A stretch of 64,000 nt of DNA, from assembly GCF_002854065.1 (NCBI RefSeq), contig NZ_CP024147.1; one strand, given 5' to 3'. The position numbers were made by a program, and so were the translations under genes. Shown here one piece after another: positions 4,028 to 35,125 of the stretch. The notes beneath the pieces are model-generated. The model was not told where the DNA came from, did no database searches, and saw only the letters and a program-made list of their open reading frames with translations. Origin of the DNA: Escherichia coli (GTDB taxonomy: Bacteria > Pseudomonadota > Gammaproteobacteria > Enterobacterales > Enterobacteriaceae). Position 1 is the first letter of the stretch; each line of letters opens with the position of its first letter.

Positions 4028-5140
4028 ATGGTAAATGTTCGTCAGCCCAGGGATGTCGCACAAATTCTGCTTTCGGTGCTGTTTTTAGCCATCATGATTG
4101 TGGCATGTCTGTGGATTGTTCAACCCTTTATTCTCGGCTTTGCATGGGCCGGTACGGTGGTTATCGCCACCTGGCCGGTATTGTTACGTTTGCAAAAGAT
4201 CATGTTTGGCCGCCGCTCTCTCGCCGTTCTGGTTATGACGCTGTTATTAGTGATGGTGTTTATCATCCCTATTGCTTTGCTGGTTAACAGTATCGTCGAC
4301 GGCAGCGGCCCGCTTATTAAAGCCATTTCCAGCGGTGACATGACGTTACCCGATCTGGCGTGGCTTAATACCATTCCGGTGATTGGCGCGAAGCTGTATG
4401 CAGGCTGGCACAACTTGCTGGATATGGGGGGGACGGCGATCATGGCGAAAGTCCGCCCTTATATTGGTACCACCACCACCTGGTTCGTTGGGCAAGCGGC
4501 GCATATCGGGCGCTTTATGGTGCATTGTGCGCTGATGCTTCTCTTCAGTGCCCTGCTGTACTGGCGCGGTGAACAGGTGGCACAAGGCATTCGCCATTTT
4601 GCAACCCGTCTGGCAGGCGTTCGCGGAGATGCCGCCGTGCTGCTGGCGGCACAGGCTATCCGCGCGGTGGCGCTGGGTGTGGTGGTGACGGCGTTAGTAC
4701 AGGCAGTGCTTGGCGGTATCGGCCTCGCCGTATCCGGCGTACCTTATGCAACGTTGCTAACGGTGTTAATGATCCTCTCCTGCCTTGTCCAGCTTGGCCC
4801 GTTGCCGGTACTGATTCCGGCGATTATCTGGCTCTACTGGACCGGCGATACCACCTGGGGAACGGTATTGTTAGTGTGGAGCGGTGTGGTTGGCACGCTG
4901 GATAACGTCATCCGCCCAATGTTAATTCGCATGGGTGCCGATTTACCGCTGATCCTGATCCTCTCTGGCGTTATTGGTGGTTTGATTGCTTTCGGGATGA
5001 TCGGTCTGTTTATTGGTCCGGTTCTGTTAGCCGTTTCCTGGCGTCTGTTTGCCGCGTGGGTGGAAGAAGTCCCGCCGCCGACGGACCAACCGGAAGAAAT
5101 TCTCGAAGAACTTGGCGAAATCGAGAAACCGAATAAGTAA
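4028..5140 (+). CDS. ydiK: inner-membrane AI-2E/UPF0118 family transporter
   Basis: 370-aa hydrophobic ORF; synteny. Confidence 0.85.
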   Translation: MVNVRQPRDVAQILLSVLFLAIMIVACLWIVQPFILGFAWAGTVVIATWPVLLRLQKIMFGRRSLAVLVMTLLLVMVFIIPIALLVNSIVDGSGPLIKAISSGDMTLPDLAWLNTIPVIGAKLYAGWHNLLDMGGTAIMAKVRPYIGTTTTWFVGQAAHIGRFMVHCALMLLFSALLYWRGEQVAQGIRHFATRLAGVRGDAAVLLAAQAIRAVALGVVVTALVQAVLGGIGLAVSGVPYATLLTVLMILSCLVQLGPLPVLIPAIIWLYWTGDTTWGTVLLVWSGVVGTLDNVIRPMLIRMGADLPLILILSGVIGGLIAFGMIGLFIGPVLLAVSWRLFAAWVEEVPPPTDQPEEILEELGEIEKPNK

Positions 5141-5147
5141 TTTCTCA

Positions 5148-5173
5148 TCAGGCGGCTCTGCCGCCTGATTGTT
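5148..5173 (+). terminator. possible intrinsic terminator after ydiK (GC stem caggcggc/gccgcctg, weak T tract)
   Basis: Inverted repeat read directly 8 bp after ydiK stop. Confidence 0.4.
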
Positions 5174-5325
5174 AACCACCGCTAATTGATATTTGCTTGC
5201 TCTTCCCCATATTTTCCTGCTTACCGCCATTCAGCTGGTAGTACCTGTCGCAAATTCTTTACAGTTTTTAAACTAATGAGACGAATCTGATCGACGCAAA
5301 AAGTCCGTATGCCTACTATTAGCTC

Positions 5326-5430
5326 ACGGTTATAAATCAACATATTGATTTATAAGCATGGAAATCCCCTGAGTGAAACAACGAATTGCTGTGTGTAGTC
5401 TTTGCCCATCTCCCACGATGGGCTTTTTTT
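5326..5430 (+). ncRNA. rprA: RprA small regulatory RNA (Hfq-dependent activator of rpoS translation)
   Basis: Sequence ACGGTTATAAATCAACATATTGATTTATAAGCATGGAAATCCCCTGAGTGAAACAACGAATTGCTGTGTGTAGTCTTTGCCCATCTCCCACGATGGGCTTTTTTT matches RprA as I recall it, ending in hairpin plus T8 terminator. Confidence 0.85.
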
Positions 5431-5568
5431 TAACATTTTTCCGCTTCGCTACCTCGCCCCTCACTCTTTCCAATAATGTTGCACAAGATACTGTGACTCT
5501 CTTCAAGCCGTCAGCAGGCTGATAATGTTATTTATATTTTATTGTTTATTTCATGCAGCCATTACACG

Positions 5569-5925
5569 ATGAACGCTTATGAACTCCAGGCACTCCGCCA
5601 TATTTTTGCCATGACTATTGATGAATGCGCGACCTGGATTGCCCAGACCGGTGACAGTGAAAGCTGGCGTCAGTGGGAAAATGGCAAATGCGCCATTCCT
5701 GATCGTGTAGTCGAGCAACTGTTGGCTATGCGTCAGCAACGAAAAAAACATCTTCATGCCATTATAGAGAAAATAAATAACCGCATCGGCAACAACACCA
5801 TGCGTTTTTTCCCCGACTTAACCGCGTTTCAACGTGTCTACCCGGATGGCAATTTTATTGACTGGAAGATCTATCAATCGGTAGCCGCTGAATTATATGC
5901 ACACGATCTGGAGCGGCTTTGTTAA
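5569..5925 (+). CDS. ydiL: uncharacterised protein YdiL (118 aa)
   Basis: Track ORF 5542..5925 (TTG start) trimmed to ATG at 5569 (MNAYELQ...). Confidence 0.7.
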   Translation: MNAYELQALRHIFAMTIDECATWIAQTGDSESWRQWENGKCAIPDRVVEQLLAMRQQRKKHLHAIIEKINNRIGNNTMRFFPDLTAFQRVYPDGNFIDWKIYQSVAAELYAHDLERLC

Positions 5926-30886: not shown

Positions 30887-30986
30887 GGTATCCGTTCTGC
30901 TGAAGTGTCATGGCGTTGATTTTACGGTGACTCTTCGACAGTGAAAAGAAAAAAGGCCGCAGAGCGGCCTTTTTAGTTAGATCAGA

Positions 30987-31286
30987 TTACTCGTCTTTGG
31001 GCGAAGCGTTTTCGACCCGGCTTTTTAACTTCTGCCCGGGTCTGAAGGTCACCACGCGCCGTGCTGTAATGGGAATATCCTCGCCCGTTTTCGGGTTACG
31101 TCCCGGGCGTTGATTCTTATCACGCAGATCGAAGTTACCAAAACCAGAGAGTTTCACCTGTTCGCCGTTTTCCAGAGCGCGACGGATCTCTTCGAAAAAC
31201 AGTTCAACCAGTTCTTTGGCATCCCGCTTGCTAAGCCCAAGCTTATCAAACAGATATTCTGACATTTCAGCTTTTGTAAGCGCCAT
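30987..31286 (-). CDS. ihfA: integration host factor alpha subunit
   Basis: 99-aa ORF recognised as IHF-alpha. Confidence 0.95.
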
Positions 31287-34884: not shown

Positions 34885-34912
34885 ACAAAAAAAGCCTCCA
34901 CTGGGAGGCTTT
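34885..34912 (-). terminator. pheST attenuator terminator (hairpin agcctcccagtggaggct followed by T7 on minus strand)
   Basis: Read directly between pheM and pheS. Confidence 0.65.
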
Positions 34913-34958
34913 CAGGCGCTGTTTTCCGTTTCTCTTCTCACGCGCTAGCCTCCTGGAT

Positions 34959-35003
34959 TCAGGTGCTAAAGTAAAAAAAGAAGCGGAAAATAGCAGCATT
35001 CAT
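34959..35003 (-). CDS. pheM: pheST operon leader peptide [14 protein letters not shown] (Phe-rich, 14 aa)
   Basis: Read directly on minus strand; 5 Phe codons in 14. Confidence 0.8.
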
Positions 35004-35125
35004 TGCTTGCGTTACCTTTTGGTACTCTTCAAAAGACCTTTATTGAAAAGGCTACGGCGATAAAAGTCAATGTTTTGATGGCGTTGAAACGAAAAGAGGG
35101 AGACTAGCTCCCTCTTTCAACTGGC

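Follow-up and report, generated by a model that had tools for sequence, protein, structure and literature searches.

RprA has been under study since 2001. Its transcription is Rcs-dependent (PMC7913699, PMC7814967), and it was on the Salmonella rprA promoter that the box for the RcsB homodimer was defined structurally, through a crystal structure of RcsB with that promoter (PMC7913699). The RNA binds Hfq (PMC3708529), activates rpoS and ricI and represses csgD, ydaM/dgcM, hdeD and narP (PMC9262595, PMC5861431). Pairing with narP is by RprA nt 30-70, with compensatory mutations at nt 45-48, and a stable 3′ fragment, comprising seed and terminator, is found alongside the primary transcript; this processed form is the last 47 nt and keeps some activity, its effect on the narP 5′ end appearing to be indirect (PMC9262595). 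For the pairing of RprA with rpoS, genetic proof has been published (Majdalani 2002, as cited in PMC7547250). The other Hfq-dependent activators of rpoS, DsrA and ArcZ, have the same pairing site as RprA in the upstream part of the rpoS leader and also counter premature Rho termination (PMC7547250), but their sequences, loci and inducing signals are unrelated to those of RprA. The mobile-element sRNA StxS, from a Shiga-toxin phage, is also an rpoS activator; it is processed by RNase E, and the rpoS seed region that it uses is the same as for RprA (PMC7547250).

The window considered here is a stretch of 64,000 nucleotides of Escherichia coli (contig NZ_CP024147.1 of assembly GCF_002854065.1), in which the initial annotation had placed an RprA small RNA locus at 5326-5430. 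The Rfam RprA search that had been named beforehand as the means of refuting this assignment was done by comparing the whole window with the covariance models of Rfam 15 at gathering thresholds. It gave a match to RprA (RF00034) at 5326-5433 on the plus strand that is far above threshold (118.5 bits, where the gathering score is 70; E = 1.6e-16) and that spans model positions 1-108 of 108 without truncation, which places it in the family by score over the full model; at the rprA locus the Rfam scan had no DsrA or ArcZ match. Gene b4431 of K-12 MG1655 (1770372-1770477) maps onto window 5326-5431, and the 429-nt ydiK-ydiL intergenic region of K-12 is 100% identical to window 5141-5569, with 0 mismatches. 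Between the two strains the RNA, intergenic region, neighbors, RcsB box, promoter and terminator are all the same, and no difference was detected. Of 5426 complete E. coli genomes, 5424 have a match to a 1.1-kb query from around rprA; ydiK, rprA and ydiL are annotated under the match in every record among the matches listed, and the RefSeq rprA annotation falls on the same bases in the matching genomes. In E. coli O157:H7 TR01 the annotated gene corresponds to window 5326-5433. The end at 5430 given initially lies within the run of eight T residues at 5424-5431, and so within normal 3′-end heterogeneity.

With a Rfam match and K-12 identity both bearing out the initial assignment, it is as good as certain that window 5326-5431 (+), with the sequence ACGGTTATAAATCAACATATTGATTTATAAGCATGGAAATCCCCTGAGTGAAACAACGAATTGCTGTGTGTAGTCTTTGCCCATCTCCCACGATGGGCTTTTTTTT, is rprA, the gene for an Rcs-activated, Hfq-dependent small RNA whose expression and Hfq binding are taken from the literature. 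The locus is already known and ordinary, and nothing contradicts the identification. It is, as was first remarked, a useful landmark and a regulatory element that annotation of proteins only would miss, keeping in mind that the NCBI pipeline routinely labels rprA at these bases, so that the locus itself adds nothing new. The present analysis bears directly on sequence identity, family membership, the anatomy and conservation of promoter, box and terminator, and synteny. The features discussed are collected in Table 1.

Table 1. Features at and around rprA, in window coordinates
Feature	Position	Strand	Remarks
ydiK, AI-2E family transporter	4028..5140	+	370-aa ORF; RefSeq annotation in identical genomes
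9-bp inverted repeat ATCAGGCGG/CCGCCTGAT	5147..5169	+	read from sequence
RcsB box TGAGACGAATCTGA	5277..5290	+	-49 to -36 of rprA start; exact consensus match
-35-like hexamer TCGACG (4 of 6)	5291..5296	+	read from sequence; 17-nt spacer to -10
-10 hexamer TACTAT	5314..5319	+	-12 to -7; read from sequence
rprA transcript	5326..5431	+	106 nt by K-12 annotation, 3′ end inside U run; RF00034 118.5 bits; K-12 b4431
5′ stem-loop, RprA nt 5-30	5330..5355	+	11 A-U-rich pairs; minimum-energy and centroid fold
Central pairing region, RprA nt 33-62	5358..5387	+	UCCCCU 5365-5370, AACGAAUU 5380-5387
Invariant core ATTGCTGTGTGTAGTCTTTGCCC	5385..5407	+	5′ end of processed (last 47 nt) form
Rho-independent terminator	5404..5431	+	stem-loop 5404-5423 and T8 5424-5431; terminator scan
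ydiL, Aca2/YdiL family	5569..5925	+	RefSeq annotation; Pfam PF08965, E = 2.8e-61

It had been proposed to look for an RcsB box about 40 bp upstream of 5326, and one is there, its center about 42 bp upstream. The sequence fits the consensus TN(G/A)GAN4TC(T/C)NA (PMC7913699) exactly, and apart from two engineered end bases a single internal base distinguishes window 5272-5294 from the 23-mer that was crystallized with RcsB (PMC7913699). The predicted box directly abuts the -35 hexamer, the arrangement expected of an RprA-family promoter. Counting box matches across the window is not evidence in itself, since there are 3 where 2.4 are expected by chance, which is not significant; position and conservation are what count. 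Where orthologous Enterobacterales loci had enough upstream sequence for scanning of the 100 nt before the E. coli-equivalent start, a strict box was present in 114 of 118, most often at -49 or -50, compared to 1 of 108 in a control stretch. Two of the four without it are mobile partial copies and the other two are from Edwardsiella species. In the 118-sequence alignment, conservation is at least 90% for TC..A in the box, for GA in the -35 (5293-5294) and for TA..AT in the -10 (T5314, A5315, A5318 and T5319). The rprA promoter escapes the generic sigma-70 scan, because its hexamers score 8 of 12 with a threshold of 9; a score below threshold is as expected for an activator-dependent promoter, and the assignment was made from the annotated +1 and from conservation.

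The Edwardsiella loci, from E. ictaluri (L037) and E. hoshinae (L045), are the sole ydiK-linked rprA loci that have neither a strict RcsB box nor one with a single mismatch in the 100 nt upstream. The 5′ halves of their rprA genes also fail to align with the other loci.

With 186 nt separating it from ydiK upstream and 137 nt from ydiL downstream, and all three on the same strand, the segment could be taken for no more than a 3′ UTR or terminator belonging to ydiK, or a transcribed leader of ydiL, rather than an independent gene. This is highly improbable given that an RcsB box, -35 and -10 belonging to rprA itself are conserved, and that ydiK is followed by an inverted repeat of its own at 5147-5169. 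The wider gene order also speaks against it. Among the 120 Enterobacterales loci listed, ydiK is upstream on the same strand in 108, the remainder being mostly cut short or second copies, and the present locus has this same family position. In contrast, the RNA and its promoter are kept though ydiL, together with ydiM, is downstream in just 8 of the 120 loci listed, all of them from Escherichia or Citrobacter, and in Klebsiella the gene downstream of rprA is ppsA, on the opposite strand. The initial description of the gene as lying between ydiK and ydiL therefore holds here and in Escherichia and Citrobacter but not for the order at large, where the conserved anchor is the upstream ydiK.

Several minor features of the neighborhood can be recorded. 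The repeat ATCAGGCGG(CTCTG)CCGCCTGAT is perfect and begins 7 nt past the ydiK stop codon; there is no T run after it and the terminator scan does not list it. PF08965 (Aca2/YdiL), the family of YdiL, includes anti-CRISPR-associated regulators of mobile elements, and ydiL may have been acquired beside rprA in particular lineages only. A Klebsiella pneumoniae record designated as a plasmid (NZ_CP079158.1, 46175-54280; L348) has a full rprA with a ydiJ-like gene, ydiK, ppsA and aroH, and several Klebsiella plasmid records of 110-144 kb likewise have full rprA with chromosomal neighbors. In such cases, either part of the chromosome is carried on a plasmid or the record was wrongly assigned.

The predicted fold of the RNA, at -25.8 kcal/mol, is more stable than that of shuffled sequences (z = -2.51). 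At the 5′ end is a hairpin of 11 A-U-rich base pairs (nt 5-30), then comes a mostly unpaired center, and last the terminator. Over 117 sequences the 5′ stem-loop is paired in 64-73% of cells with both-side changes at 10 of its 11 pairs, and distant genera align poorly there; for the terminator stem the figure is 99.4%, and its compensatory changes are C-G to U-A (20 sequences), A-U to G-C (8 sequences) and A-U to U-A (2 sequences). A terminator hairpin with poly-T had been recognized at the outset, and the stem-loop at 5404-5423 is indeed followed by TTTTTTTT. Its stem has 7 pairs, 5 of them G-C, and it is the sole plus strand site found by the terminator scan; a 3′ Rho-independent terminator and a length of about 105 nt are both as expected of the family.

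Just 5′ of the terminator, and running into its stem, is the core ATTGCTGTGTGTAGTCTTTGCCC, which occurs once in the window with 0 occurrences expected by chance. The 21-mer TTGCTGTGTGTAGTCTTTGCC (RprA nt 61-81) is present exactly in at least 120 Enterobacterales loci from about 50 genera when one genome per species is scanned; the 21-mer is invariant in that set by construction, and it is the flanking evidence that is independent of the search pattern. Its distribution extends to Yersinia, Serratia, Proteus, Providencia, Photorhabdus and Xenorhabdus, and to Edwardsiella, Hafnia, Erwinia, Pantoea, Dickeya and Pectobacterium. Conservation of the 3′ part of RprA, and Rcs control, have been described in Erwinia (PMC7814967).

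The mechanical list of open reading frames contains two that overlap the segment, a GTG-initiated ORF at 5373-5522 (49 aa, +) and a TTG-initiated ORF at 5330-5506 (58 aa, -), and either could be thought to encode a small protein. That rprA is instead a protein gene is improbable in the extreme. The plus strand ORF crosses the intrinsic terminator, neither ORF is annotated in any genome among the matches listed, and what is conserved tracks the RNA features, namely the compensated stem and the invariant unpaired core, and not a reading frame, with indels being frequent.

Expression, Hfq binding, targets and processing of this particular rprA would be those known from the literature on the identical K-12 sequence, where Rcs induction, Hfq binding and RNase E processing to the 47-nt 3′ form are documented (PMC9262595, PMC3708529, PMC7814967). 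On that basis, envelope stress would switch on the Rcs phosphorelay, and phosphorylated RcsB would bind the box at 5277-5290 upstream of the weak -35 and so bring about transcription from +1 at 5326. The RNA of about 105 nt would stop at the intrinsic terminator and bind Hfq, and its central region, nt 30-70, would be available for pairing with target mRNAs. By opening the inhibitory hairpin of the rpoS leader it would increase sigma-S synthesis, and csgD, ydaM/dgcM, hdeD and narP would be repressed through pairing that covers or adjoins the ribosome-binding site. The processed form, the last 47 nt beginning with the invariant core at 5385, would coexist with full-length RprA and may have some activity of its own.

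For the upstream arm of the rpoS leader hairpin, complementarity to the central region of RprA is visible in two blocks. RprA nt 40-45, UCCCCU, are complementary to positions -106..-101 of the K-12 leader and are paired in the computed duplex too; nt 55-62, AACGAAUU, are complementary to -117..-110 as read by eye. In RNAduplex, RprA nt 30-78 and the leader form a duplex whose energy does not surpass that of shuffled sequences (z = -0.41; 117 of 400 dinucleotide shuffles are as good), and use of full-length RprA yields meaninglessly long duplexes. These energies speak neither for nor against the published pairing. The case for the pairing thus rests on the visible blocks and on the published genetics.

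The first 15-23 nt of processed RprA (ATTGCTGTGTGTAGTCTTTGCCC), followed by an intrinsic terminator, are also found in phages, both temperate and lytic, in phage-plasmids and in conjugative plasmids. Twenty-two phage genomes match the RprA query over nt 59-110 or less, among them 3 Escherichia phages of the vB_EcoM-606R2 group and lytic N4-like Erwinia phages. Matches at 80-90% identity, apparently to the 3′ part only, are present in 96 plasmid records, mostly from Klebsiella and Raoultella and typed as conjugative. The 5423 E. coli genomes searched have 6039 RprA places between them, or about 615 chromosomal copies beyond one per genome, with as many as 3 in a single genome. In an alignment of 7 mobile copies ATTGCTGTGTGTAGTCTTTGCCC is identical in all, and is followed by hairpins with differing stems and loops and then by a T run. 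Of six mobile copies scored against Rfam RprA, five have 43-63 bits, and because this is below the gathering score of 70 they would normally escape annotation.

A scan of IMG/VR with the 20-mer core gave at least 120 viral contigs, with 90 distinct flanks, and none of ydiK, ydiJ, ydiL and ydiM has a match at any core-bearing viral locus among the IMG/VR matches listed. Upstream contexts are very diverse; many copies have CCCCTGAATCATCC, reminiscent of UCCCCUGAGUGAAA in the center of RprA. A hairpin of -6 kcal/mol or better and then a T run is present in 58 of 60 distinct viral 3′ segments, with more than 35 stem and loop variants. Mobile copies are mostly without an RcsB box, 7 of 118 viral copies having one in the 200 nt upstream of the core. 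A second viral scan avoided the bias of searching with the core by being anchored on the phage-specific upstream hairpin CAGGTGGAGGCACCACCGCC. Of its 128 occurrences, 45 have the seed GCTGTGTGTAGTCTT and an RprA-type terminator next, 34 have the same seed, with at most one mismatch, and the unrelated terminator GGCGGTACCAG...CTGGTACCGCC, and 49 are without the seed. Retention of the seed before two unrelated terminators argues for selection acting on the single-stranded seed itself.

That the RprA core and mobile elements share sequence is plain from these comparisons. What the sharing means can be read in more than one way. Integration into the 3′ ends of genes happens at tRNA and tmRNA genes, and mobile 3′-core copies could similarly be the attachment-site cores (attP, attL or attR) of elements for which the rprA 3′ end is the integration site, and not functional RNAs at all. 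The situation in Phytobacter massiliensis (NZ_HE578945.1) favors this. A full rprA (L062:814-920, at about 1410180) is followed about 8 kb downstream by a 3′ partial copy (L063:1165-1284, at about 1418247) that has 77.8 bits against Rfam RprA and lacks both ydiK and an RcsB box, and the DNA between the two contains genes for a phage tape-measure protein and a repressor as well as a C4 antisense RNA. The interval looks like a prophage remnant integrated into the rprA 3′ end, and for this copy the attachment-site reading is possible. As a general explanation, attachment sites are unlikely. The vB_EcoM-606R2-type prophage, which 158 E. coli genomes contain, has its integrase and its chromosome junction at yfhL, some 10 kb away from the module; the module itself is part of the early/immunity region, and an attP identity was rejected there because of this distance. 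Integration at rprA would also not be expected of lytic N4-like Erwinia phages, of P1-like phage-plasmids or of IncF-type conjugative plasmids, all of which have the module, and preservation of the 15-nt seed before two unrelated terminators is a further point against attachment sites.

A functional interpretation, which is put forward as a tentative possibility, is that the core at 5385-5407 is the seed of a larger family of sRNA-like modules, each of seed plus terminator, with which mobile elements of Enterobacterales may mimic processed RprA on the same conserved target or targets while being free of envelope-stress signaling. If so, a shared target would account for how extremely the RprA 3′ end is conserved, and the segment of interest for pairing with it would be GCUGUGUGUAGUCUU. 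Should the modules be functional, mobile elements would be copying the seed of a core-genome sRNA on a wide scale, and the modules would point to a highly conserved target of processed RprA. An RprA-like module is absent from the list in a 2025 review of phage sRNAs, and no description of mobile copies of the RprA 3′ core was found in the searchable literature, beyond which prior description is possible. Identity of the mobile module with StxS was considered and rejected, as the two O157:H7 genomes among the matches listed show one copy each of the RprA 3′ segment.

Individual mobile copies have features that merit recording. In Enterobacter wuhouensis a second partial copy, without ydiK or an RcsB box, adjoins CI-like and CII-like genes. 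On the Raoultella conjugative plasmid pRo24724 (L128:2726-3050) the seed and terminator are about 15 nt past the stop codon of an 86-aa ORF that belongs to no Pfam family, and a gene annotated as a Hok-family toxin is adjacent; sok is matched by Rfam about 1.4 kb away and may belong to a different locus. Pfam and PHROGs scans of the small ORFs beside mobile modules gave no family, repressor-type genes excepted. Four viral contigs (L132, L140, L160 and L236) have T-arm-like sequences, for instance GGGTTCGAGTCCC, 15-30 nt upstream of the core. Placement of these modules directly after tRNA genes is not supported, as ARAGORN calls no tRNA immediately upstream in any of the four, and the sequences may be tRNA fragments or tRNA-like elements.

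Other RNA families have matches elsewhere in the window. Phe_leader (RF01859) at 34885-35009 on the minus strand, with 75 bits against a gathering score of 55, is presumably the pheST attenuator. STnc540 (RF02082) matches 30887-31045, also on the minus strand, with 67.4 bits against 38, and this segment contains a strong terminator-like hairpin. The ES036/CssrF sRNA (RF02751) matches 58897-58939 on the plus strand with 42.9 bits against a gathering score of 37.6.
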